Positions 3,895 to 50,321 are shown, counted from the stretch's first letter. The stretch is 58,119 nt of DNA from a virus (IMGVR_UViG_3300029319_000051:1-58119); one strand, 5' to 3'. Notes: generated by a model not told the origin, from the sequence alone. Program-made: numbers and translations.

Positions 3895-4182
3895 ATGAAA
3901 GTAAAAAAGCGAGATCCCAAGGTTGGGACAGGTAAAAAACCCAAGGGGAGTGATCGCAGGCTGTATACTGACGAGAATCCCAAGGATACAGTAAGCATTA
4001 AGTTTGCTACACCTGCTGATGCACGTGCTACAGTGGCCAAAGTGAAGAGAATAAACAAGCCCTTTGCCAGAAAGATTCAGATATTAACTGTAGGGGAGCA
4101 GCGAGCTAAGGTTATGGGTAAAAAAGAAGTGGTTGGCATATTTAGAGCAGGGAAAGAAGCGCTAAGGCGTAACAGAAAATAA
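3895..4182 (+). CDS. Basic hypothetical protein of a type common in marine phages
   Basis: 95 aa; GTGKKPKGSxRRLYTDENPKDTV motif. Confidence 0.75.
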   Translation: MKVKKRDPKVGTGKKPKGSDRRLYTDENPKDTVSIKFATPADARATVAKVKRINKPFARKIQILTVGEQRAKVMGKKEVVGIFRAGKEALRRNRK

Positions 4183-4184
4183 GG

Positions 4185-4192
4185 TATATTTG
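4185..4192 (+). promoter_or_regulatory. Bacteroidetes -7 promoter element (TAnnTTTG)
   Basis: TATATTTG, 3 nt before the ATG at 4196. Confidence 0.75.
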
Positions 4193-4195
4193 CTT

Positions 4196-4789
4196 ATGAG
4201 ACTTCAAAGACGCGCTCAAGACGGGATGAAGGTTAAAAAAAACGGAGATCCCCCCAAAGGATACAGGAGGGATGCTGATGGATACCTTACCCCTGTAGAT
4301 TTTGATGAGTTTCACGAAGAATCACAGGACTCTTTGAATGTTGATGCCATCAAGAAAGGTATTTCTATGGCTGAGTCTCTTGGAGGGGTGCTTATGATGA
4401 ACCCAACCAGCACTGCTACTGGTATGTATGGTCAGAGGTACAGTGAAATTAAGGATCTCCCGATGATGAAGGGTATTAGTAGGGAACAGTTTGCCAAAAA
4501 CCTACCCCTGCAAGAGAAAGTCTTCAACATGAGAATGGAAGAAGGCATTGGTGGCCCTTCTTTGCGTAGAAATGCAATAGAGCTTACTGAAGAGTACGCC
4601 CCACAGCTTGGTGAGGACTGGAATTACAGCCTTGATGACGTAGCTTTTTTGAGCAACTTCCTAGGTAGGCAGCGCACAAGGGAGTTTTTTGCCAGCAAAA
4701 GAGATGGGACTAGATTTGAGGTGCCTGGGACTAACAAAACACCAGAAGAATATCTCCGCATTGCTAGAAAAGCGGCTTATCAAGATTGA
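4196..4789 (+). CDS. Lysozyme/lytic-transglycosylase-like protein
   Basis: MAESLGG...NPTSTATGMYG resembles the ES...N..S.A.G..Q pattern of SLT-like muramidases. Confidence 0.5.
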   Translation: MRLQRRAQDGMKVKKNGDPPKGYRRDADGYLTPVDFDEFHEESQDSLNVDAIKKGISMAESLGGVLMMNPTSTATGMYGQRYSEIKDLPMMKGISREQFAKNLPLQEKVFNMRMEEGIGGPSLRRNAIELTEEYAPQLGEDWNYSLDDVAFLSNFLGRQRTREFFASKRDGTRFEVPGTNKTPEEYLRIARKAAYQD

Positions 4790-4790
4790 T

Positions 4791-4798
4791 TATATTTG
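4791..4798 (+). promoter_or_regulatory. Bacteroidetes -7 promoter element
   Basis: TATATTTG immediately after the upstream stop codon. Confidence 0.75.
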
Positions 4799-4822
4799 CG
4801 TCAAACAAAACTCAAAAGAATT

Positions 4823-5056
4823 ATGGATCACGGAAACAAAAAAAAGATGCCAGGTGGAGGCAGAATGATGGTCGTTAAAAAAATGCCAGGTGGTGGCATG
4901 ATGAAGGACAAAATGATGAAGCATGGTGGCAAGCACAAGATGCCCATGTACATGTACGGTGGCAAGGTGTATGGTGAAAAAGGAGCCATGCTCAAGGCTA
5001 TCTTGGAAGATCCAGCTCAGGCTGCGATGGCAAGAAAAGAACTTGGCATGAAGTAA
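4823..5056 (+). CDS. Small Met/Lys/Gly-rich protein with KKMPGGG repeats
   Basis: ATG at 4823; repeated xxGG motifs. Confidence 0.7.
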   Translation: MDHGNKKKMPGGGRMMVVKKMPGGGMMKDKMMKHGGKHKMPMYMYGGKVYGEKGAMLKAILEDPAQAAMARKELGMK

Positions 5057-5134
5057 GCTTGAAAAAGCATTACTTCAATCCCAAGAAAAAAAGAAAAGCT
5101 CCCTCAGTGGAGAGAGAGCGAAGACGCTTAAACA

Positions 5135-5614
5135 ATGAAGCTGTCAAAAAATCTGTCACTCGCAGAGGTGACCAAAAGCATCACGGCTAAACGCCTTGGT
5201 ATAGACAACACACCAGATGAGTGGGTTACAGAGAATCTCAAAAAGGTTGCAGAGCACATTTTTCAACCTGTGCGCGACCATTTCGGAAAGCCTATATACG
5301 TGTCGAGCGGCTATCGTTCGGCTGATCTCAATGTTGCGATCGGGGGTTCGAAGCGTAGTCAGCATGTGGAAGGCAGAGCACTCGATCTTGATGGTGACGT
5401 ATACGGACGTGTGTCAAACAGTGACATCTTCCGCTACATACTCAACAATCTTACGTTTGATCAACTCATTTGGGAGTTTGGTGATGAAGATAATCCTGAT
5501 TGGGTTCACGTTTCTTTCGTTCATGATGGTGTTAATCGTGGTAGGTGCCTCAAAGCTTGTCGTGACGATAAGGGAAAGGTGTACTACGAAGTGATGTTTG
5601 GCAAAGGATTGTAA
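5135..5614 (+). CDS. Endolysin, peptidase M15 family (Zn peptidase)
   Basis: SSGYRS, SQH..G.A.D and WVHVS motifs of M15A-type peptidases. Confidence 0.9.
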   Translation: MKLSKNLSLAEVTKSITAKRLGIDNTPDEWVTENLKKVAEHIFQPVRDHFGKPIYVSSGYRSADLNVAIGGSKRSQHVEGRALDLDGDVYGRVSNSDIFRYILNNLTFDQLIWEFGDEDNPDWVHVSFVHDGVNRGRCLKACRDDKGKVYYEVMFGKGL

Positions 5615-5619
5615 TTGCT

Positions 5620-5627
5620 TATATTTG
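5620..5627 (+). promoter_or_regulatory. Bacteroidetes -7 promoter element
   Basis: TATATTTG, 4 nt before the ATG at 5632. Confidence 0.75.
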
Positions 5628-5631
5628 CATC

Positions 5632-6123
5632 ATGTCTACACTATCAGTAACAATAAGCGAGAGCATTACCATCAACGGAAAGGATAGAGGTAGTGACATC
5701 TCCCTCGATATCGATAACATCACGCAGGTAATGCACCGCATAGTAAGCCTGCCAGCTGATGGTGGTAGCGCAGCTACGCAAACCACAGTAGCTAATTTTA
5801 GAACAGCCGTCACTACTGCTGATAGCGCTATGGACGACGACGATGTCAGATACATCAGAATAACAAACCTGGATTCTAGCAACGACGTTCACCTGTCTTT
5901 GCAGCTGGCTGCCAACGGTGACGCTGATGCGTCAACCCAGGCAAGCATCCGCCTAAACGCGGGAACCAGTTTTATCTTAAGCAAGTCTGTAGGTGTTGCT
6001 GCTGTTGATGACGATGCAGCCACCGCTACTGCTATTGGAAGCTTGGTGGATCTAGAAAGCATCATTGCTGTCAATGACAACAACGCTGACGTAGACGTAG
6101 AAGTCTTTGTAGCTAGCGTTTAA
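5632..6123 (+). CDS. Putative virion structural protein (beta-rich, acidic)
   Basis: 163 aa; YIRITNLD motif and composition like small structural proteins. Confidence 0.6.
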   Translation: MSTLSVTISESITINGKDRGSDISLDIDNITQVMHRIVSLPADGGSAATQTTVANFRTAVTTADSAMDDDDVRYIRITNLDSSNDVHLSLQLAANGDADASTQASIRLNAGTSFILSKSVGVAAVDDDAATATAIGSLVDLESIIAVNDNNADVDVEVFVASV

Positions 6124-6542
6124 GAATTAAGTTTCTTGTAAAAGGCCTGAACAAGCAGGCGCCCTCTTTGAGACAGGGCATATCTCACCCTATAGTTGTA
6201 TTTTGTTTCCTCTCTAAACAAGTGGTCCTCCAACTTGTTGGATGGAGTCATCTTGTCAAAGTGTTTGTAGAGGTAACCCTCCTTAACTAACGGATACACA
6301 AGTCTTTCCGCTAGTTTTTTCTCTGAGTATTCGTAATCCTTAGCTGCATACTTTAGGGTGAAGAACTCTAGGTCGTAACACCACAGCATAAAAAGCATCT
6401 CTCTTTCAAAGATGTCCCTCTTGTCGCAGAAGGACATCATAGTAGTTCTCAACCGCTTGAGGTAGTTGTTTTTTACGTACCTTTGGTTAAGGTGGGAGAA
6501 GTCGCGGAAGAGCTTCTTTTTGGAAACTAAACTTTTAGGCAT
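6120..6542 (-). CDS. Putative winged-helix DNA-binding protein
   Basis: LVYPLVKEGYL...YALSQRGRLLV resembles a MarR-like wHTH wing; isolated antisense gene in the late block. Confidence 0.55.
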   Translation of the reverse strand: MPKSLVSKKKLFRDFSHLNQRYVKNNYLKRLRTTMMSFCDKRDIFEREMLFMLWCYDLEFFTLKYAAKDYEYSEKKLAERLVYPLVKEGYLYKHFDKMTPSNKLEDHLFREETKYNYRVRYALSQRGRLLVQAFYKKLNS

Positions 6543-42600: not shown

Positions 42601-44509
42601 GGTTGAACAAAACCCCAACCCAAAGGTTTGGAGAATTGTTGATGCAGAAAAAGCAAGACAACAAGACCCTCATTCTGTTGGTGTTAGAGTGGGCGGTGAG
42701 CAGAAGTTTATTAGATTCAAGGACGCCAGCCATGCTGAGACACTAAGGAATCTAAATCTGCCAGCCACAACCACCTTAATTAGAGTTCTTCGAGCTCCAT
42801 CTAACTGGTTGAGAAGGTCGTTTACAACTTTGAACCCAGAGTTCATGGTGTCTAATTTCTCTAGAGATATCCAAGCCGCCCTGTTCAACGCTGCGGCGGA
42901 GGCTGATATCCCAGGAGGACTTGTAGAAGGCAATGCAATTATTGCTGACATGATTAAGACGGTGCCAGCAACTCTGAAAGCCTTGACTAGAGATGAGGTG
43001 GGGGCTTTGAAAAAAGTTTTTAAAGACAACCCAGAGATAGAGCGGTACTACAACGACTTCAGAGAAGACGGGGGAAAGACGGGTTGGAGCTATGCAAAGC
43101 CATTGTCAGACATAGCTAAAGACCTAGAAGGCAAGACTGGTGAGAAGACTAGGATGCAAGAAATTCTAGGCAAGGGGAAAAACTTCCTTGATACTATTGA
43201 GGGAGTAAATGATGCCTTTGAAAATAGCATCAGGCTGTCAGCATACATTGCTGCAAGAGAAAAGGGTGTAGGCAGGGAGAAGGCAGCACAGCTGGCAAAG
43301 AACATTACCGTGAACTTTAACAAGTCTGGCGAATATGGACAGGCTATCAATGCGGCATATTTGTTTTTCAATGCTTCTGTTCAGGGAACTGCAAGATTAG
43401 GTAAATCCTTGCTCACTTTCAAGGAGCCAACATATCCAGACGGAAGCCGAAGAAGACCCATAGACAGAATAAACAACGCACAGAAGATGGCAGCTGCCCT
43501 CACTGTGTTTAATGGTCTTCTCACAATGTTGGGTCTCGCTATGTCTGGAGAGGATGAAGATGGAGAGCTTTACTACAACAAGATCCCCGCTTACATAAAA
43601 GAAAGAAACCTCATAATCATGAGGCCTGATGGCGAAAACTACTACAAAATTCCTATGCCTTATGGGTTTAGCGTCTTTGCTAACCTAGGTAACCTATCTG
43701 TAGAGGTCGGTGCGGGACACAAAGAAATAGACGAGGCGATGTTCCAAATGATATCGTCAACCATAAACTCCTTCTCTCCAGTAAGTTTTGGTCAGTCTGA
43801 AGATTTGATTACAAAAGTTGGAAAAACAATAACTCCAACATTCTTTACGCCAATTATAGACTATATGGCCAACGAAACATACTTTGGCACTCCAGTTAGA
43901 GCCAAGAACTTGCCGTATGGTTTGCAAAAGCCTGAGTCATCATTGTCATTTAGATCTCCAGAATCTGTTCAACAGTTTTTTAGGTGGTTGAATGAAGCTA
44001 GTGGTGGATCAACAGAAGTCAAGGGGGATATAGATATCAACCCAGATGCTTACTGGTACTTCTTCGAATACTTTATTGGAGGTGCGGGTAAGTTTGTTAC
44101 AAGAACAGGAGAGGCTACCAGAAGGTTGGCAGCTAAGGCTTCCGACACTGACGTGCAGATAGAGGCAAATGATATTCCATTCTTGAGGCTGCTTTACGGT
44201 GAGCCATCTAAGTTCATGGACGTTGAGGACTACAGAAAGAGACGCGATATAATTAAGTCCCTGAGGTCTGAGATGAAAGCGGGCAGGAGAGACGACCCAG
44301 GAAGATATGATGGTGTTCTCCTCCTAAATCAAAGGCTTGACTTCTTTGACAAGCAACTTAAAAATATCAGGGCTCAAAAAAGAAAGGCCTTGAACATAAA
44401 GGATTACGCACAGAGAACAATAAGGATAGAGGAGTTAAGAGAAAAAGAAAGAAGTATAGTTATGAACTTTAATGAGCAATATGAAAAACTCAGAGGGAAA
44501 AAAGATTAA
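36659..44509 (+). CDS. Giant ejection/polyvalent protein with a C-terminal LPD38-like domain
   Basis: 2616 aa; NP.F...NF.RD, ITVNFN..G, YLFFNASVQG and IP.YIKERN...YKIPMPYG motifs; degenerate zincin-like LEEFSH. Confidence 0.75.
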   Translation: MNGEDLTQVGAEVSDIEKSIDLLSEKGYDSNRIMEVMSSVGYDSNQVYNEFVRRHEDERQRMLEEKERADALFQQQRDAYDALLKKKDLPSEQDGESLDLDPQLPGAQASVADPRLFEIRQNDELAMNGVTNSRIGNELVRAVSFNDSQAVTKALESAQSNGLLTEFSIEDEYDQETLQKIQGAGNEMIGFGKSSYQLALSKANEINKSLGIDIEYDINSETDFGLFLRESVERVERNEEDFNKRTEQFIQQIPGMRDEEVGFGSILLDDLSFSNMVSGMAAFQADVFGEGAGLKSLYGDSVTSEYYQEKIRKTNQANAQREKLFYEDLEVAEEAYSMGSTERVAAAWRGDISMGDYLAATTVETSRVMVDGIKSIAEYIINPAVLAIDVFGESYGNTRTYSPHLSITEAAVTSAAKATTEVVMERIMMGLGVGAEALVKGSLKTAKQTLRGSKRAAIDKARKDLAGKLTGSLSGKIIGNTAIEGLEEGLVEITNWAIDAADNVAMGRNVKDLNFSEVGDAFFAGMAGGFGPIAVTQLPSHRGHIKFMSDRSNVMKAIAELRKDYEAETDPVRKKELEKDLMNAMVRSNVITNAENKMYEDFSPEEKRTVIMYNQEISNLQQTLDTGKYWNGDKVTSEERTALEARLKNAIDRKAKIEAGVEARQGEEQSKEEVETPPTVENAAETKAETKTRKVPKSEKDIHKDIPVPTEKAPQGQEQEAVQLSLFDENTVLDPVAEPETQPEVQEEAPVQEEVKTEAEQEADKPVEEQGFFELNAEEAQKFDLKDTKVVGDGAGQISIPLASKINKVIDAFGKRGLKGIKVRYHRNTESLRNVDPEVAQQLDQIELQNQQSGKKARLGGYFLNGTIHLHKDSDALDVLEEFSHGVLKDVIGKEAKSRERLYNELVDMSKGKSKAAQEVKKVLDERERLYKGVSDATMQEESIVFFLVNYAQNPSSFSSLKSRIKSALNRFFKSVGAKSNIIKTDDSLLRLANKFRDAAQGVETQVQPETRAETEPETEVAQETVTPDKDPADMTPEELEAYTNQLVEGAEGVETSQDDALSKSTQDIDVTPGMASIRQKQNFNYLKDTEIFYTHYPTLGAGDLPLTSSRYTTYSVEKSVKVNDYFHFRNWYNYQTGNQVSRRIANMYFIKDGKKYNVNPPRPKVDRNGKIVPMDLPLTFRQRQRQESFQKAKDSKNILARVKDINDTNRKLFDTIPWNGLVNAREFAPATKPLYEMTANDKYVAAVIEQKNLQAAIDMGLTKEEVQERVNKPDRGGVTGKLNRLMDGDIVNATGLVPFEQAETGDTVGMFALRDLNVEKLGKPDHVASNEELADLKEGNIERIKNLFMKFFGYDRSMPNQEKGITSGIRAVQRLDETDIPELKEGERVLSTHVSFSHAQKGIEAYRKEAQARYRQDNSVTSGEFGAGFTVLLPEATRGNPDVVKAYLNGLLARSKDREAGLPGPALYNKFTSTGKRLIRSMVKQAEAEQYEGLSPETARLFSSPEFDRPVTTEKQFQEIIDVAINFNEKLPDQFEARKSLFSEDLLEEFLGHESYEMAREIPHPSLKMDDQIAEYFNDPSLSNQAAGTLIGYKTFSYEVEVVEGAKARSKGGEEFVDFKEGTIRAVKLDGYGFAGAIVVKGEVSDLEVLKEQYTLDRLDPDQFKDPELVPTTEPDPETGIRVAKDTKTPYQRMEERNRYSRIEMNSVRNDYDGNASIREGRGLTSIRTDQGTFELSDLNSYQEWRNKWIKRLQDKYVDIFKIQQDVETARGKIDRTQDFRMAEELMYGKAAEDLRKLDEKVDGITSELKANKISPSEISEYLYALHAPERNQLISERSEGKITEGSGMSNARAKEIINAIPSGKQKAYDNIVKMVREIQQDTRDTMVNFGLESKETIDAFEAMYENYTPLSGIATDEETSFDSSYPTGGAGLSVFGPTTKRAEGRKTEATDILAQVIAQNASIHIKSRTNEALQSLYNLVEQNPNPKVWRIVDAEKARQQDPHSVGVRVGGEQKFIRFKDASHAETLRNLNLPATTTLIRVLRAPSNWLRRSFTTLNPEFMVSNFSRDIQAALFNAAAEADIPGGLVEGNAIIADMIKTVPATLKALTRDEVGALKKVFKDNPEIERYYNDFREDGGKTGWSYAKPLSDIAKDLEGKTGEKTRMQEILGKGKNFLDTIEGVNDAFENSIRLSAYIAAREKGVGREKAAQLAKNITVNFNKSGEYGQAINAAYLFFNASVQGTARLGKSLLTFKEPTYPDGSRRRPIDRINNAQKMAAALTVFNGLLTMLGLAMSGEDEDGELYYNKIPAYIKERNLIIMRPDGENYYKIPMPYGFSVFANLGNLSVEVGAGHKEIDEAMFQMISSTINSFSPVSFGQSEDLITKVGKTITPTFFTPIIDYMANETYFGTPVRAKNLPYGLQKPESSLSFRSPESVQQFFRWLNEASGGSTEVKGDIDINPDAYWYFFEYFIGGAGKFVTRTGEATRRLAAKASDTDVQIEANDIPFLRLLYGEPSKFMDVEDYRKRRDIIKSLRSEMKAGRRDDPGRYDGVLLLNQRLDFFDKQLKNIRAQKRKALNIKDYAQRTIRIEELREKERSIVMNFNEQYEKLRGKKD

Positions 44510-44924
44510 AGACACGGGCCTTGGCAAGTGGCTCAAGTCAAAAGCACCTAACGTGCTTGATGTTGTAGGCGATCTGCTGCCTGACAGCGGTGGCCTTGGT
44601 GTGGTCAAAAACCTCATAGACAAAGAGCCCAATATTGATCCAGCTGAAGCCAAAGCTGCCATCGATGCAGAGGTAAAGTTTCAGGAAAATGTCACCGAAA
44701 GATGGAAGGCTGACATGGGGAGCGACGTAAAGTTGGCGAAGCTCATCAGGCCAGTGACACTCATCGCTTTGATGAGCATGTTTATGGTGACCATGGTTGC
44801 CGACAGCATGGACAACTGGCCATTTAACGTAAAAGATTCCTACGTATCTTTGCTTGAAATCCTGATGCTCACTGCTTTCGGTGCGTATTTCGCAGGCAGA
44901 ACCATAGAAAAAGCCAAAAAATAA
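44472..44924 (+). CDS. Holin (3TM GTA-type family)
   Basis: RWKADM.SD..LAKLIRP, hydrophobic helices and AYFAGRTIEK. Confidence 0.8.
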   Translation: MSNMKNSEGKKIKDTGLGKWLKSKAPNVLDVVGDLLPDSGGLGVVKNLIDKEPNIDPAEAKAAIDAEVKFQENVTERWKADMGSDVKLAKLIRPVTLIALMSMFMVTMVADSMDNWPFNVKDSYVSLLEILMLTAFGAYFAGRTIEKAKK

Positions 44925-44925
44925 C

Positions 44926-45057
44926 ATGGAAGAGGACTTCGACGATATCAGCTTTTTGGATCAAGACAAGCTCAAGAAGCAAGAGAAGAAGATTGAAGAC
45001 GGTGAGATCACCTGCAACATCGACAACCCAGAGGATTGCGAGTCATGCAGCGGATAA
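44926..45057 (+). CDS. 43-aa peptide ending in an RNR-alpha-like redox tail (CNIDNPEDCESCSG)
   Basis: Read manually; starts 1 nt after the holin stop and overlaps the next start. Confidence 0.7.
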   Translation: MEEDFDDISFLDQDKLKKQEKKIEDGEITCNIDNPEDCESCSG

Positions 45058-47465
45058 TCTCCTTGCTATTTTTGTTGCCGATGTTGGCTTCGGCCCAAAC
45101 AGGTTGGATAAACTTTGAGTTTCAAGCCGATCAGTACGGGGGTGAGAGCACCTGGGAGATCTATATGGTTGGCTCTGACAGCATATATGCTGCTGGAGGA
45201 CCATACGAGTCAAACTCATACACTGAGCAGCTGATTACCCTGCCAGCTGGTGAGTACAACCTAGTGGTAAACGACGAGTTTGGAGATGGCATTTGTTGCG
45301 AGTTCGGAGAGGGGTGGTTTGGTTTTGAAAACAGCTGCGGAGTCAACACATACGTATATGACTTTGCATCAGAACAGGTAACTGTACCCTTCAACCTATT
45401 GCCATGTCCTCCGCCAGTATCTGGCTGCATGGATGAAGACGCGAACAACTACAACCCACAAGCGTATTTCGACGCGAACAACTGCCTTTATGACGTTACC
45501 TTCAGGCTGGATCTTAATGGACCGCATCCGCCTGAGATAGACATCCCAGAGGTAAACTCATCGGCTAACGCATGGTGCGGGAATTGTTGGCCCATGTCTG
45601 ACGAAGACGGGGATGGCGTTTGGGAGGTCACAGTAGAGATGCCAGAAGGAGAACACCTTTGGAAGTTTTCTGCTGACGAATGGGAGGTTCAGGAATTGCC
45701 AGTAGGCGTTTCTGAGTCTCCTTGTTTTTTGTTCGATGAGTTTGGGTATGTCAACAGAACAATAAACGTGCAGGGGGACATGATGCTGCCTCCATTTTGC
45801 TGGGAAAGCTGTCTGCCCTGTGGTGCTATTCCAGGGTGTACAAATCCTAACGCTAGCAACTGGAGTCCTTGGGCAAACTTTGACAACGGATCGTGTAGTG
45901 GACTTGGGGCTAACTGCCAGCCTTGGGAGACAGAGATTACAACCATTCTTGTTTCAGACAACTATCCTGAAGAGACAAGCTTCAATGTTTACAACGTAAC
46001 GTCAGGCGAAGAGCTGCTGGACGTATCTATCGGGGATGTGTCTCAGCTAGTTGTTGGGGTTCCGATGGCGTTCTCTACATGCGCCACAGTAGGCGATGTT
46101 GTTGAGGTAGAAATATCTGACAGCTTTGGTGACGGACTTGGGGCTTCTCAGTGGGGTGGTCAAGACGGAACAGCACTTGTCGTGGCTTGTGGAGACACTC
46201 TGTGGGAGTTGCCTGAAGCAGACTTCGGATACACTGTGTTTACAGATTTTAACACCCCTGCTTGTATTGGCGTTGAAGATGTGGTGGGGTGCGGAGACCC
46301 AGACTACCTGGAGTACAACCCAGACGCAACGATCCAGCTTGACGTCTTGTGTGAGACTCTCGCTGTGTATGGGTGCGTAGATGATTCATACTTCAACTAC
46401 GATTCACTTGCAAACACAGAAGATGCGATAGACTCTTGTTTTTATACGCTGACGATTACAGACGGTGTTGGAGACGGTTGGTTTGGGAGCTGGCTTGGGA
46501 TTTACCAAGACGGATGGACATCTCCTCAGTACAAAATGGGGCCGAATGACGGAAACGAAGAAACCTTTGATGTGTATCTGTCATCTGAGGAGGAGATAGA
46601 GCTGTTCTTCTTTACGACTCCTCAGTCTCAAAACCAAGTGGCTCAGTGCGGTTTCATGCTTGTGGGCCCAACAGGTGATACCCTCATCGATGTTTCGCAG
46701 TGGAGCATCACACCCTTCCCAAACACATACACGGTAACTCCTTACTGCGGAAACAGCTGCATTCCTTTTGTCTACGGATGCACCGACGATCTCGCACAGA
46801 ACTACAGCTCATCAGCAAACGCAGACGACAACAGCTGCTACTACAACGCTGGATGCACTCAGGCTGGATATTTAGAGTACTACACTCAAGGCTATGAAGC
46901 CGACTACGATGACGGCAGCTGCCTTACCCTAGCGCTGTTCGGTTGCACAGATCCAGATGCCTTGAACTACGATCCAGAAGCCAACGTGGACATTGACTCT
47001 TGCATAGACGTTGTTGAGGGGTGCATGGACATATACGCTTACAACTACAACGAAGACGCAAACACACCGACAAATGATTGCCTGTATGATGCTGGCTGTG
47101 TGACTGGACCAGGAGAGCCATACTGGGCTAACGACTACTGCTACTCATGGGTTATAGAGGTTGACCCGTACTGCTGCGAAACAGCGTGGGATGGAGTGTG
47201 TGAGCAGATGTATGACTACTGCGAGCAGGGAGTAACTTCAGTTGATATTGTTGATAGATCAGAGCTGCACTTTTTCCCAAACCCTACGTCTGGCATCGTA
47301 AACATTCAAGCACCCACAGGCACAAGAGTAAAGGTGTTTGATGCTAGGGGGAGGTTTGTTGCGACAACCACGGGCAGCACCGTAGAGCTACCATCTCCAG
47401 GCCTTTATGTTGTCACAGCTAACTACAAAGGTGTAATCAAGAGAGAAACAATCATAAGACAATGA
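45045..47465 (+). CDS. Secreted Cys-rich repeat protein with a T9SS type A C-terminal sorting domain
   Basis: Signal peptide (...LASA/Q), eight GCxD..A.NY-type repeats, three D.xGDG modules, a CBM-like domain, and terminal FPNPT.G...VFDARGR...PGLYVV. Confidence 0.85.
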   Translation: MQRIISLLFLLPMLASAQTGWINFEFQADQYGGESTWEIYMVGSDSIYAAGGPYESNSYTEQLITLPAGEYNLVVNDEFGDGICCEFGEGWFGFENSCGVNTYVYDFASEQVTVPFNLLPCPPPVSGCMDEDANNYNPQAYFDANNCLYDVTFRLDLNGPHPPEIDIPEVNSSANAWCGNCWPMSDEDGDGVWEVTVEMPEGEHLWKFSADEWEVQELPVGVSESPCFLFDEFGYVNRTINVQGDMMLPPFCWESCLPCGAIPGCTNPNASNWSPWANFDNGSCSGLGANCQPWETEITTILVSDNYPEETSFNVYNVTSGEELLDVSIGDVSQLVVGVPMAFSTCATVGDVVEVEISDSFGDGLGASQWGGQDGTALVVACGDTLWELPEADFGYTVFTDFNTPACIGVEDVVGCGDPDYLEYNPDATIQLDVLCETLAVYGCVDDSYFNYDSLANTEDAIDSCFYTLTITDGVGDGWFGSWLGIYQDGWTSPQYKMGPNDGNEETFDVYLSSEEEIELFFFTTPQSQNQVAQCGFMLVGPTGDTLIDVSQWSITPFPNTYTVTPYCGNSCIPFVYGCTDDLAQNYSSSANADDNSCYYNAGCTQAGYLEYYTQGYEADYDDGSCLTLALFGCTDPDALNYDPEANVDIDSCIDVVEGCMDIYAYNYNEDANTPTNDCLYDAGCVTGPGEPYWANDYCYSWVIEVDPYCCETAWDGVCEQMYDYCEQGVTSVDIVDRSELHFFPNPTSGIVNIQAPTGTRVKVFDARGRFVATTTGSTVELPSPGLYVVTANYKGVIKRETIIRQ

Positions 47466-47665
47466 GAGTTAGAAAGAAGAAAAAAAACAAAGTAGATTAC
47501 AGCACTGCATACGAAGGCGCCATTGGCAAAAGCAGTAGTCGGCAAGCCGCAGAAAAAATGTGGGCTAGCAAGGCTTCTGCTGAAGAAATGAGTCTTGGGT
47601 CAAAGACAACCATGGATCAAGACGGTAATTACATAGTAAGAACTAGACTTTCGTCAAAGGCATGA
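47462..47665 (+). CDS. Small basic protein
   Basis: 67 aa; ATGA overlaps at both ends. Confidence 0.6.
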   Translation: MRVRKKKKNKVDYSTAYEGAIGKSSSRQAAEKMWASKASAEEMSLGSKTTMDQDGNYIVRTRLSSKA

Positions 47666-48708
47666 AACACTTAGCCGCCATAGTTCTTTTTGTTTTGCCT
47701 TTTGTTGCAAACGGCCAAAGCAACTTCTACAAAGAAGTGCTGAGAAGAGCTACGTTTTATGCAGCTGTAAACGGAGGTAACTCTGTATCGGACGAAGATG
47801 TTTTTTCCGTGGCCACAGGACCGCTCACCACTGATGTTGTAGAGACTCCGTTTGATTACTCTCTGACCCTAGGGGTAAGAAAGATTGCAAGGTTTGGTTA
47901 CGAGAACAGAGCCAACGTGTTTTACGACGGCACAGAGAAGACATACGGCGATGCAGCCACCGTAGGTAAGTACGACGGTTTTGAGTTCTTAGCTGAGGCT
48001 GACTGGCGCAGACAGCAGGGTAAAAACTTCTTGGATCAAGATTACTTTGCCAGATACGTCGCAGATAGCTGGGTGGTAAAAACAGAATACCTTCAGGACG
48101 GGTTCGCAGACGTCAGATACTTTGAGGCTTCAGAAAGACTCAGAGTAAAGATTGGTAAAAAGCTGTCGTTCAACGCTGGTGTGGTCCAAAGGATTTCTCA
48201 GCCATACGGGTACGACCCTCTTCAGATATGGTTGTTGGACAACAATCAAATACACTATACAGCACTGGCTCTGGAGCAGGGGTACAGCGTTGATGTAAAC
48301 ACAGGAGAGTTCTTTTCCCCAGATGGAGAGATGGTTGCAAACGATCAGGCGGTATGGGAGCAGGTGGTGATACCTCAGGTGATTGACGAATACGTATCTG
48401 AAAAAAGAGCAGAGCTGGACAACCAGTGGCTTTACTCAGCGGTGTTGGGGTTTGACTTCTACCACTACGAAAAGGACTTTTGGCTGCACTCGTGGGGTAA
48501 CGTGATGCCTTATCACCTTGACACTGGCGATGAATACTCTTACCACAATTTCGTGAACAGCAGTCAGTGGGTAGACTTGGGCTTTGGTTTGGTGTTCGGA
48601 ACTAAGCTTACCAAGAGCTTTGGTATATTTGCAGAGGGCAAATACAACAGATACTGGAACAGAGAGTGGCATGACTTCTCTGTGGGACTCAACTACATAC
48701 TATTGTAA
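47662..48708 (+). CDS. Putative outer-membrane beta-barrel protein
   Basis: Signal peptide (...VANG/Q), aromatic-rich alternating strands, C-terminal FSVGLNY beta-signal-like strand. Confidence 0.7.
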   Translation: MKHLAAIVLFVLPFVANGQSNFYKEVLRRATFYAAVNGGNSVSDEDVFSVATGPLTTDVVETPFDYSLTLGVRKIARFGYENRANVFYDGTEKTYGDAATVGKYDGFEFLAEADWRRQQGKNFLDQDYFARYVADSWVVKTEYLQDGFADVRYFEASERLRVKIGKKLSFNAGVVQRISQPYGYDPLQIWLLDNNQIHYTALALEQGYSVDVNTGEFFSPDGEMVANDQAVWEQVVIPQVIDEYVSEKRAELDNQWLYSAVLGFDFYHYEKDFWLHSWGNVMPYHLDTGDEYSYHNFVNSSQWVDLGFGLVFGTKLTKSFGIFAEGKYNRYWNREWHDFSVGLNYILL

Positions 48709-48992
48709 TGGCACAACAAATTGGAGAAGACACTAAGGTAACGCTCGATCTCAAGACGCTTGGGATGGTGGCGGCAGGGATAGGCACTGTTGTGGCTATG
48801 TGGTTTGCGTTGCAAGCGGACATTGCTGAGGCAAAGGAGCTGCCCCTTCCTGCTGAGCCAGAGATCACGCGCATGGAGTTTGACATGAAAGATCAGCTGG
48901 TTCGCCAAACAATCATGACGACTCAAGAAGATGTGACTGAAATCAAAGAAGATATCAAGCGCATCGAAGAGAAAATAGACCAACTAAAATGA
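48708..48992 (+). CDS. Single-TM coiled-coil membrane protein
   Basis: One hydrophobic helix followed by a heptad-rich C-terminus. Confidence 0.7.
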   Translation: MAQQIGEDTKVTLDLKTLGMVAAGIGTVVAMWFALQADIAEAKELPLPAEPEITRMEFDMKDQLVRQTIMTTQEDVTEIKEDIKRIEEKIDQLK

Positions 48993-48995
48993 CAA

Positions 48996-49361
48996 ATGAA
49001 ACTCATATCAACCCTGTATGTGTGCTTTGCATTATTTCTGGCGGCGGTTTTTGTAACGCCTGCAGAAAATAATCAGGTATGCAGTTCTGGCATTTGTGTT
49101 GTTGAGTTCAACGCGAGCTTCAACGCATCAAACACTGTGCCCTGGATCGAAGATCTAAACGACTGTTATACAAGTCGAGTTGACATTGTGGCCTCTCCTG
49201 AACTGCAAAGAGAGCACAAGATTGTTGTAGTCCCAACCATCGTTGTCTTCAACGAGGGAGAGGAGGTAAAAAGGTTTCAAGCAAACATCATGATGTCAAT
49301 GGAGGCATCAAAAGAAGATGTTCAAGAAGCCATTGATGAGGTAATACTCAACGACTTTTAA
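48996..49361 (+). CDS. Exported thioredoxin-fold protein lacking the canonical CxxC
   Basis: Signal peptide; VVEFNASFN at the WCxxC position; cis-Pro motif VVPTIVVFNEGEEVKRF. Confidence 0.7.
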   Translation: MKLISTLYVCFALFLAAVFVTPAENNQVCSSGICVVEFNASFNASNTVPWIEDLNDCYTSRVDIVASPELQREHKIVVVPTIVVFNEGEEVKRFQANIMMSMEASKEDVQEAIDEVILNDF

Positions 49362-49600
49362 ACCCACGTCACCTTGATGGTGAGTGCCATGTCTTTGAGG
49401 TCGTAGAACTCCTCTCTAACCATCTTCTCGATGATTGGGTAGAGGTAGCAGTGAGCTACTTCTTCTTCACTTGTTTCCGTAAAGATCCGTTGGAATCCAT
49501 TCTTGTTTATCCCAGCATCGACGTGGATAAACTTAAAGTCCTTTGATACTACTGCCTTCACGACTTGGTGGTATTGTTTGTCGGGGCTAAAATCACTCAT
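49358..49600 (-). CDS. Hypothetical protein
   Basis: 80 aa; last gene of the minus-strand block, convergent with the late block. Confidence 0.6.
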   Translation of the reverse strand: MSDFSPDKQYHQVVKAVVSKDFKFIHVDAGINKNGFQRIFTETSEEEVAHCYLYPIIEKMVREEFYDLKDMALTIKVTWV

Positions 49601-49602
49601 GC

Positions 49603-49764
49603 TTAGACTATTGGAGGCTGTCTAGACAGCATTTCTAAAAAGTCAACCATGTCGATGATGCCGTTGCTATTGAAGTCCAGCGCATACGCATCATCCTCGG
49701 GATCGGGAGATGAACCATACGCCTGAAGCAAAAGAAGCAAATCCATTATGTAAGTTGACCACAT
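49603..49764 (-). CDS. Small dockerin/EF-hand-like peptide (53 aa)
   Basis: Read manually: DLLLLLQAYG...LDFNSNGIIDMVDFLEML. Confidence 0.6.
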   Translation of the reverse strand: MWSTYIMDLLLLLQAYGSSPDPEDDAYALDFNSNGIIDMVDFLEMLSRQPPIV

Positions 49765-49794
49765 ACCTTTGGTACGTTGTTTAACGTAAAAAAG

Positions 49795-50055
49795 TTACGG
49801 GCGCTCTACCCTTACTCTCAAGACGTAGACGTCAGGTACGTCAGTCTCAACAAGAGTGTAGGCCGTTCCCATGTAGTCATACTCAGTGGCCCCCAACAAA
49901 ATCTCACACTCAAAGTATTTAACTGGATGGTTACCGTCCCACTTAGTGGCGATAAGCAAATCACAGTTGTACTTCTCTGGGTGAACGAAAAGTTTCTTTG
50001 GTGCTGTGCTGCATCCAGCAGCAAGCAAGGTCAATAACAGTGCTGTTGTTCTCAT
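49795..50055 (-). CDS. Small lipoprotein
   Basis: MRTTALLLTLLAAG-C lipobox. Confidence 0.7.
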   Translation of the reverse strand: MRTTALLLTLLAAGCSTAPKKLFVHPEKYNCDLLIATKWDGNHPVKYFECEILLGATEYDYMGTAYTLVETDVPDVYVLRVRVERP

Positions 50056-50111
50056 GGGGCTAAACTAGATGAGCCCTAAACAACAACCAAGAAAAACCTA
50101 TATAATGATGA

Positions 50112-50321
50112 TTATGTGTCGCTCTGTTTTGCTATTAGAGCGTATGTCCTGCAATCGATCTGCCTGATCGGTTCGATAAAGTTTTTGTCGCAGTAATCAT
50201 TGATCTTTTTCTGCTCGTCAGGTGTGTTCGTAATACACACATTGGCGGCTTGATACTTAGCATTCTGCTCAAGAAGGGCGTCTATTTTGCGCTTCAATCT
50301 TTTGTGTTTATTAGTTTTCAT
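50112..50321 (-). CDS. Hypothetical protein
   Basis: 69-aa ORF co-oriented with its neighbours. Confidence 0.6.
   Translation of the reverse strand: MKTNKHKRLKRKIDALLEQNAKYQAANVCITNTPDEQKKINDYCDKNFIEPIRQIDCRTYALIAKQSDT

Follow-up and report, generated by a model that had tools for sequence, protein, structure and literature searches.

Spanins, such as Rz/Rz1 of phage lambda, perform the outer-membrane lysis step in other phages of Gram-negative bacteria, and to our knowledge the passage of the outer membrane by Bacteroidota phages at lysis is poorly known. Here we describe a block of six plus-strand genes that follows the holin gene (positions 44,926 to 49,361) in IMGVR_UViG_3300029319_000051:1-58119, an IMG/VR virus record of 58,119 bases whose whole length is referred to below as the window. 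Three of the six genes encode an outer-membrane beta-barrel, a bitopic transmembrane (TM) protein and an exported thioredoxin (Trx) fold, and the remaining ones encode a predicted type IX secretion system (T9SS) cargo protein and two small proteins. The block is real, conserved and very widespread in uncultured marine phages, and its barrel, TM and Trx genes constitute an old phage-specific triad that recurs without the T9SS cargo in two other phage clades. We propose, with a probability of roughly 0.38, that the block is a trans-envelope lysis accessory in the usual spanin slot and that the cargo is a clade-specific add-on.

The block is most like a spanin system or a T9SS cargo-barrel pair, and it fails membership of both, because it contains neither a lipoprotein o-spanin nor a PorV/PorP signature. 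It shares with spanins a location in or beside the holin-endolysin cassette, the succession of a gene for a putative N-terminally anchored inner-membrane coiled coil and a gene for an exported protein, as in separated spanin pairs, and the presumed task, namely the outer-membrane lysis step. However, no sequence relation to spanins was found, there are three or four parts instead of two, the predicted periplasmic helix is short, and the outer-membrane part would be a barrel with a soluble Trx fold, not a small lipoprotein. The PorV shuttle, to which type A sorting domains bind, and the SprB-SprF (PorP-like) gene pairs of Flavobacterium johnsoniae resemble the block in having a T9SS substrate gene directly upstream of a barrel gene, to which a weak co-folding signal between the sorting-domain region and the barrel can be added; in contrast to them, the barrel described here has a 12-strand model and no PorV/FadL or PorP/SprF signature, is phage-specific as far as sequence searches tell, and is also found without cargo. 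The lambda proteins Lom and Bor are likewise targeted to the host outer membrane and encoded near late and lysis genes, but Lom is an 8-stranded protein of the Ail/OmpX type with cellular relatives and Bor is a lipoprotein, whereas the barrel has no cellular family. Lom and Bor are lysogenic-conversion genes.

T9SS cargo in phages has already been published. Genes with T9SS sorting domains were reported in the Arctic and Alpine 'Cryophage', where the authors call it a unique occurrence (PMC7468147), and in crAss-like gut phages (PMC6949934). These genes resemble the one in the window in their type A sorting domains, the presumed hijacking of the host T9SS and the variability of the cargo between phage variants, but they encode enzymes, PA14 or BACON proteins, and in the portions consulted neither report mentions a barrel, TM or Trx gene linked to the cargo, or a lysis link (PMC7468147, PMC6949934). 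The triad, or a module of this kind, was not described in any paper retrieved by a full-text literature search, the scope of which excluded supplements. Among GenBank phages (INPHARED), no match was found to the block DNA, the cargo, the barrel or a divergent barrel, and searches of GenBank phage records with the window's barrel and that of one relative found it in no cultured phage.

A first-pass annotation of the window had described the block as a cell-envelope cassette of a lytic phage with a Bacteroidetes host, and had suggested that the phage displays its own Cys-rich surface protein through the host T9SS with the help of its own barrel partner and a folding helper. The anatomy that it gave was right: six plus-strand open reading frames (ORFs) are present after the holin, four junctions overlap by 1-22 nt and the two others are gaps of 1 and 3 nt, and signal peptides, judged by eye, are readable at the N-termini of the 809-, 348- and 121-aa proteins. 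Its remark that no characterised phage system is like this one also stands. The proposed role is possible and is not the best supported one, and the link to lysis is a new lead. The block genes are predicted to be translationally coupled.

The triad and its lysis-gene neighbourhood

The signal peptide of the barrel protein is followed by a Gln that is nearly invariant across 30 homologs, all of which end in GLNY[IV][IL][LF]. An AlphaFold2 model built from a 30-sequence alignment (predicted local distance difference test, pLDDT, 67; predicted TM-score 0.62) has 12 strands, with a 75-residue insert (180-254) on the predicted outer side. Strand parity in the model puts the segment 75-106 at the periplasmic face; its conservation in a diverse alignment is 0.53, versus 0.27-0.37 for the outer loops. 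The model has 106 Foldseek matches at E<=0.001, and all of those listed are outer-membrane barrels, in agreement with the first-pass reading of this gene. NanC is the best match (5.4e-08), followed by KdgM, the autotransporter beta domains NalP and EspP, and FapF, with TM-scores of only 0.38-0.60 and 8-11% identity. PorV (8gl6_F) ranks only 48th with a TM-score of 0.30, and an assignment to the PorV/FadL or PorP/SprF types was rejected. No Pfam family was matched by 28 barrel members, save one chance SH3_5 match at 0.0048, and the barrel profile has 0 matches among PDB sequences.

The barrel family comprises 293 clusters at 50% identity, and the 30 Atlas clusters nearest to the barrel are all viral. 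We sampled 201 genomes of one bacterial order, that of the metagenome-assembled genome (MAG) holding a related locus (L099), and found the barrel profile positive in 2 of them. Barrels in genome_contigs were limited to 6 loci with the same phage genes, on contigs assigned to MAGs whose taxa disagree. A bacterial home for the barrel was thus rejected, since the genome_contigs loci are phage-like and the profile is nearly absent from the sampled order, and the barrel is judged to be phage-specific, without a cellular family. Two distant relatives of the barrel, P0067 and P0060, yielded no viral contigs.

The 94-aa TM protein is encoded by the most conserved gene of the block. Its 17-aa N-terminus precedes a single TM helix, which a Pro-rich linker connects to a helix of heptad repeats (hydrophobic spacing 3-4-3-4-3); we read this layout from the sequence as that of an i-spanin, although no spanin model was matched. 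Its family includes at least 8000 clusters at 90% identity (8000/8000 scored candidates pass) from sources that include Tara, ENA and JGI, and from marine metagenomes, and no functional name occurs among the best 120 listed. The protein has no match among PDB sequences.

The thioredoxin fold of the 121-aa protein, also claimed by the first-pass annotation, is supported: the family profile matches thioredoxins in PDB at 3.4e-07 (168 chains at E<=1), and the model (pLDDT 83.5) has thioredoxins as Foldseek matches at 5.7e-06, with TM-scores of 0.62/0.72. The cis-Pro loop VVVPT is kept, with V78, V79, P80 and T81 invariant and V77 nearly so. The CxxC motif is absent in 73/73 distinct homologs, where the WCGPC position is replaced or deleted (FNAsFNxxN), and conservation does not extend to the N-terminal Cys residues. 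The lack of CxxC excludes the usual type of thiol-disulfide enzyme, so that a redox helper was rejected; the idea of a folding helper for the cargo is contradicted both by this and by the retention of the Trx gene in the cargo-less clades. A lipobox in frame in the gene 3' of the TM gene was found in only 2/184 loci, L098:2915-3253 (ALASC) and L163:8011-8379 (FLTSC), the Trx proteins of which may be lipid-anchored.

In the first cargo-less clade, whose barrel is 31% identical to that of the window, the order barrel-TM-Trx-endolysin-holin is found in 5/5 loci, with tail genes upstream and no cargo. The endolysins of these loci belong to Peptidase_M15_3 (3e-14; phrog_894, 1.6e-24) or DUF5675 (3e-27), and the holins to phrog_3427 (8e-25) or phrog_1544. 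The second cargo-less clade was defined by 96 relatives, for which 80 loci were fetched and 79 had matches. Its usual order is barrel, an exported Cys-rich acidic protein of ~220 aa, TM, Trx, M15 endolysin and holin. Both TM and Trx genes are present in 65/79 loci of this clade; among these 65, the endolysin gene begins at most 150 nt past Trx in 27, with the holin gene next in 26 of the 27, and a lysis gene occurs within 3 kb in 56. The triad of other clades likewise adjoins holins of the window's family. Within the clade of the window itself, the distance from the block to a holin or endolysin gene is at most 500 nt in 28/95 loci and at most 3 kb in 39/95. Three hidden Markov models (HMMs) of our own were used to detect these lysis genes, and they miss other families: in one locus (L093) the block is followed by a peptidoglycan-binding protein that matches the endolysin 7rum at 7e-09. 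Since the triad lies beside the lysis cassette in other clades, lysis is indicated at least as much as surface display.

The TM and Trx genes abut in 65/65, 79/90 and 4/5 loci of the three clades, whereas the exported partner of the barrel varies by clade, being the T9SS cargo, the acidic Cys-rich protein, a lipoprotein or none. The distribution suggests that the stable units are two pairs drawn to the lysis cassette, namely TM with Trx, and the barrel with a variable exported partner.

The acidic post-barrel protein of the second clade (L158:7017-7697, L155:6899-7561 and 71 other loci) is exported, very acidic and Cys-rich, and is mostly ~180-260 aa long. It contains a DGWxDCVDxSDE motif, which we take to recall LDL-receptor class A repeats, as well as DT[IV]-rich repeats and a tail similar to the last part of a sorting domain. 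That the protein possesses a T9SS sorting domain was nevertheless rejected, as our own C-terminal-domain HMM, the only model applied, found none in 73 proteins even at E<=10. Pro-rich lipoproteins of ~55-63 aa are encoded directly beside the barrel in 8 loci, which belong to the window's clade or to the second one (L115:6778-6963, L118:7053-7214, L124, L125, L130, L131, L076 and L077).

The T9SS cargo and its possible association with the barrel

The 809-aa protein contains 39 Cys residues. Its hydrophobic N-terminus ends in ASA and is followed by a post-cleavage Gln that is invariant in 26 homologs; a 'Q rule' has been described for the proteins that signal peptidase I cleaves in Bacteroidetes (PMC10367356). 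Past the signal peptide, the protein is arranged as beta-rich DxFGDG-type domains, an optional CBM48-like insert, Cys repeats of ~25 aa, a conserved Cys-rich stalk (661-720) and the C-terminal sorting domain. The latter scores 26.3 bits with TIGR04183, above the cutoff of 23, and 22.6 with Pfam PF18962, under the cutoff of 27; it is present in 25/26 homologs, the best at 8.8e-15. The protein is accordingly a bona fide T9SS type A cargo as predicted from sequence, as the first-pass annotation had it. Conservation is highest at the stalk and the middle of the protein is variable, with MAM or CBM48 modules added in some homologs (CBM48/AMPK1_CBM in 2/26, best 8e-08).

A search with the Cys-rich repeats (residues 560-745) counted 4871 of 5534 candidates as relatives, and a sorting domain is found in most of the 120 best ones listed. 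The same repeats sit in 73/201 genomes of the sampled order, on large contigs and within ORFs as long as 7517 aa, which makes the cargo a shortened form of host surface proteins. The G+C content is ~0.50 across the cargo gene (45000-47000) versus 0.43-0.45 around it, which agrees with a host-type origin of the repeats. The cargo is probably a glycan-binding surface protein.

Related loci were collected from 125 barrel relatives in IMG/VR, of which 80 were kept, and clustering was scored by tblastn together with our own HMMs. A sorting-domain cargo gene lies within 500 nt of the barrel-TM-Trx genes in 87/95 non-duplicate loci; three of the eight loci without a nearby sorting-domain gene end at a contig edge. 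The genes stay clustered even when their order is permuted, to barrel-TM-Trx-cargo (L062, L098) or TM..Trx-cargo-barrel (L080, L097, L100). The gene set thus co-occurs across related phages. The possibility of misassembled host DNA, raised by the first-pass annotation against itself, is refuted by this recurrence and by independent contigs: those of two other studies together cover 44000-50000, with 0-1 differences in each of the pieces listed, and one contig of 2189 bases spans the cargo gene, the 67-aa gene and the barrel start.

The two small genes are sporadic and optional. The 43-aa peptide, which lacks a signal peptide and has no match in family-model searches, was found by tblastn in 13/94 related loci, in five of them upstream of the holin; the ORF that had been listed as a CxxC peptide of the cassette therefore exists, but it is not a consistent member. 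An origin as a remnant of the 378-aa post-holin gene of some relatives was rejected for want of any alignment. The 67-aa gene is present in 6/94 related loci. It is a natural presence/absence polymorphism: variants in two sequencing runs (X7 and X11) skip 47465-47694/5, and 47465 is joined there to 47694/5 through 28-29 other letters.

Co-folding of the barrel with cargo residues 655-809 gave interface scores (ipSAE) of 0.54, 0.59 and 0.54, versus 0.00 for the best of 3 controls; the partner pLDDT was 77 or higher, and the runs had 62% or more of their contacts in common. In the calibration, the mark was passed by 58/80 solved complexes and 2/110 mismatched pairs, and a score of 0.60 or less was given to 7/80 solved complexes and to both passing mismatches. 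The co-fold thus weakly suggests docking of the cargo at the barrel. The claim that the phage brings its own barrel partner is, on this basis, weakly supported.

The proposed lysis role and the competing explanations

Under the proposed lysis role, the triad would bridge the whole envelope, with the barrel in the outer membrane, the Trx fold in the periplasm and the coiled-coil protein in the inner membrane. Expressed late, this bridge would act last in lysis, and the outer membrane would be breached or loosened after the action of the holin and the M15 endolysin. The cargo would be exported by Sec and then, via its type A sorting domain, through the host T9SS, and would probably dock at the outer face or the insert of the barrel through the stalk that precedes the sorting domain. 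An envelope-spanning lysis complex is favoured because of the lysis genes near the triad in three clades, the phage-specificity of the triad, the i-spanin-like layout of the TM protein, the conserved barrel segment 75-106 and the lipobox scan: a strict scan of the window gave no plus-strand candidate, its only plausible match being the minus-strand lipoprotein gene past the block (Table 1), and hence no canonical spanin pair was found in the window. The same scan found candidates within 1.5 kb of the module in 11/184 related loci. If the triad is truly a lysis device, it would represent a new solution to the outer-membrane step and a marker for flavobacterial phages.

Several observations weigh against this role. 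Among portal relatives on contigs of at least 30 kb, 10 were checked and 3 have the barrel. Both relatives that are at least 90% complete, G205 (100% complete, holin 80% identical to that of the window) and G206 (91% complete, holin 69% identical), lack the barrel and the 94-aa gene by profile, the Trx gene not having been searched in them; from these two genomes it follows that neither the triad nor the block is core. What comes after the holin varies, and unrelated exported proteins occupy this slot too, as would be expected of 'moron' accessory genes: G205 encodes a 236-aa protein and, after it, several small proteins with TM or coiled-coil segments, and G206 has a single 377-aa exported protein. 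Such a variable slot fits accessory genes equally well as lysis-cassette mosaicism. No lysis gene was detected by the three HMMs in 53/95 loci of the window's clade, in several relatives the holin and the block are 1.5-4 kb apart, with other genes in between, and the endolysin candidate of the window is 39 kb away from the holin. The o-spanin position is taken by a protein that, save in the two loci with a lipobox, is no lipoprotein, and the periplasmic part of the TM protein would have just ~58 residues. Confidence in the barrel model is modest (pLDDT <50 at 77-104), and this makes the topology argument soft. Finally, the passing co-fold may merely echo solved complexes of PorV with sorting domains. 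The non-core triad, the variable slot and the distant endolysin are among the reasons why the lysis role is given no more than the probability stated above.

A more specific form of this proposal, which we regard as tentative, is a four-part envelope-spanning device of abundant marine flavobacterial phages that would either replace spanins by a barrel-based breaker of the outer membrane or couple an event at the cell surface to lysis timing. Outermost would be a T9SS-exported surface protein mimicking the giant adhesins of the host, and further in the phage-only barrel, the catalytically dead Trx fold and an inner-membrane coiled coil beside the holin. In the second alternative, further phages that bind the surface protein as a decoy would, for instance, signal into lysis timing. 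The block supplies four defined proteins of a phage envelope set.

The strongest competitor, which we consider somewhat less likely, is the surface display proposed by the first-pass annotation, in which the phage would present its own adhesin-like protein through the host T9SS on its own barrel, for superinfection exclusion, receptor masking or competition (including on lysis debris) or an altered adhesion of infected cells, with the TM and Trx proteins as assembly helpers. Flavobacterium mutants defective in T9SS or gliding often resist phages, and a surface role is consistent with the sorting domain of the cargo, its proximity to the triad in spite of permuted orders, and, weakly, with the co-fold. 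The cargo also shares its repeats with giant chromosomal proteins and in some homologs bears MAM or CBM48 modules, its middle is variable while its stalk is conserved, and the variable slot and the two near-complete relatives without the barrel fit an accessory gene. On the other hand, the triad persists without a detectable T9SS cargo in two clades, where it is joined to endolysin and holin genes, and the Trx fold lacks its redox site. Known exclusion genes of lytic phages belong to the early genes, and a place last in the presumed late operon fits exclusion poorly. The cargo, the barrel and their co-occurrence are thus retained from that proposal. If cargo display is nonetheless true, a lytic phage would exploit the T9SS with copied host surface modules, with a bearing on marine particle attachment and carbon flow.

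A regulatory role is clearly less probable still. The TM-Trx pair, perhaps with the barrel, would bind the holin or endolysin as an antiholin, a releasin-like protein or a timer of the lysis-inhibition type, possibly relaying a signal from the cell surface. The abutment of the two genes in three clades, often beside the endolysin or holin, is consistent with this, as is a distant TM-like protein (own HMM, 5e-07) among the small post-holin TM proteins of the barrel-less G205. A language-model search places the 94-aa protein near the small phage TM families DUF7365 (0.90) and DUF2730 (0.83), which we treat as leads only, and by analogy a surface protein, a barrel and a single-pass protein together may resemble trans-envelope signalling. 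However, no homology to a known antiholin, RI or releasin emerged, and the barrel and cargo are hard to account for as regulators. A nutrient-uptake module, with the barrel as a small substrate-specific porin and the cargo as a glycan binder that boost host metabolism, is very improbable: the best Foldseek matches NanC and KdgM are 12-stranded oligosaccharide channels and CBM48 modules occur in two cargo homologs, but strand number alone may explain structural matches of such low similarity, the barrel has no sequence relation to any porin family and is absent, save for the two profile matches, from the 201 genomes sampled, and neither the TM and Trx partners nor the lysis-gene link would be explained.

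Phage genome, host and further features of the window

The IMG/VR record is estimated to be 94% complete. Its plus strand encodes a terminase, a portal and virion proteins, which makes it a phage, as previously annotated; its replication genes are on the minus strand from ~49.4 kb onward. A search of GenBank phage records with the portal gave 87 matches, all with <60% identity (~30% among those listed). By organism name, 86/87 have Flavobacterium, Cellulophaga, Tenacibaculum or Maribacter as their host, and the remaining one is a Caudoviricetes sp. Because these closest cultured relatives infect Flavobacteriia, the host is most likely a member of this class, which agrees with the Bacteroidetes host suggested earlier. 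Flavobacteriia possess T9SS.

Table 1. Features of the window, in order of position
Feature	Coordinates	Strand	Basis or remark
Endolysin candidate	5135-5614	+	Peptidase_M15_3, 6.2e-20; sole candidate found
Giant protein, 2097 aa	26469-32762	+	virion structural PHROG match
Giant protein, 2616 aa	36659-44509	+	LPD38 'large polyvalent protein' domain; phrog_14770, phrog_616
Holin, 150 aa	44472-44924	+	phrog_3427 'holin' 1.9e-22; weak GTA_holin_3TM match
Acidic peptide, 43 aa, ending CESCSG	44926-45057	+	ORF; 3' end overlaps cargo start
Cys-rich predicted T9SS cargo, 809 aa	45036-47465	+	ORF; likely ATG at 45045
T9SS type A sorting domain, cargo residues 747-808	47274-47459	+	TIGR04183
Basic protein, 67 aa	47462-47665	+	ORF; without signal peptide; optional cargo-barrel insert
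Outer-membrane beta-barrel, 348 aa	47662-48708	+	model, Foldseek
Bitopic membrane protein, 94 aa	48708-48992	+	ORF, alignment
Exported thioredoxin fold, 121 aa	48996-49361	+	profile, model, Foldseek
53-aa ORF	49603-49764	-	hydrophobic N-terminus; stretch DFNSNGIIDMVDF
86-aa lipoprotein	49795-50055	-	lipobox LAAGC, three Cys

The holin has a membrane-spanning C-terminal half in addition to its family match, and in a tblastn search 4/9 matching phage records annotate the gene as a holin. In a scan of 44000-50200, promoter-like sites numbered 2 (7.2 expected) and terminator-like sites 6 (4.1 expected), and the Trx gene is followed by no clear terminator.

The gene of the 86-aa lipoprotein is convergent with the block and lies ~430 nt past the Trx gene. 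It is found with 46-66% identity in 14 related loci, and its product resembles the 'YNPNP' barrel-flanking lipoproteins of another clade only superficially; it could be an o-spanin-like or an exclusion lipoprotein. In G205, three paralogs of ~200 aa ending in ...GTRFV.LGSNNW. are encoded after the small TM proteins (L279, G205:C1:49000-58000, positions 3995-6290). The DFNSNGIIDMVDF stretch of the 53-aa ORF presumably recalls EF-hand/dockerin calcium loops.

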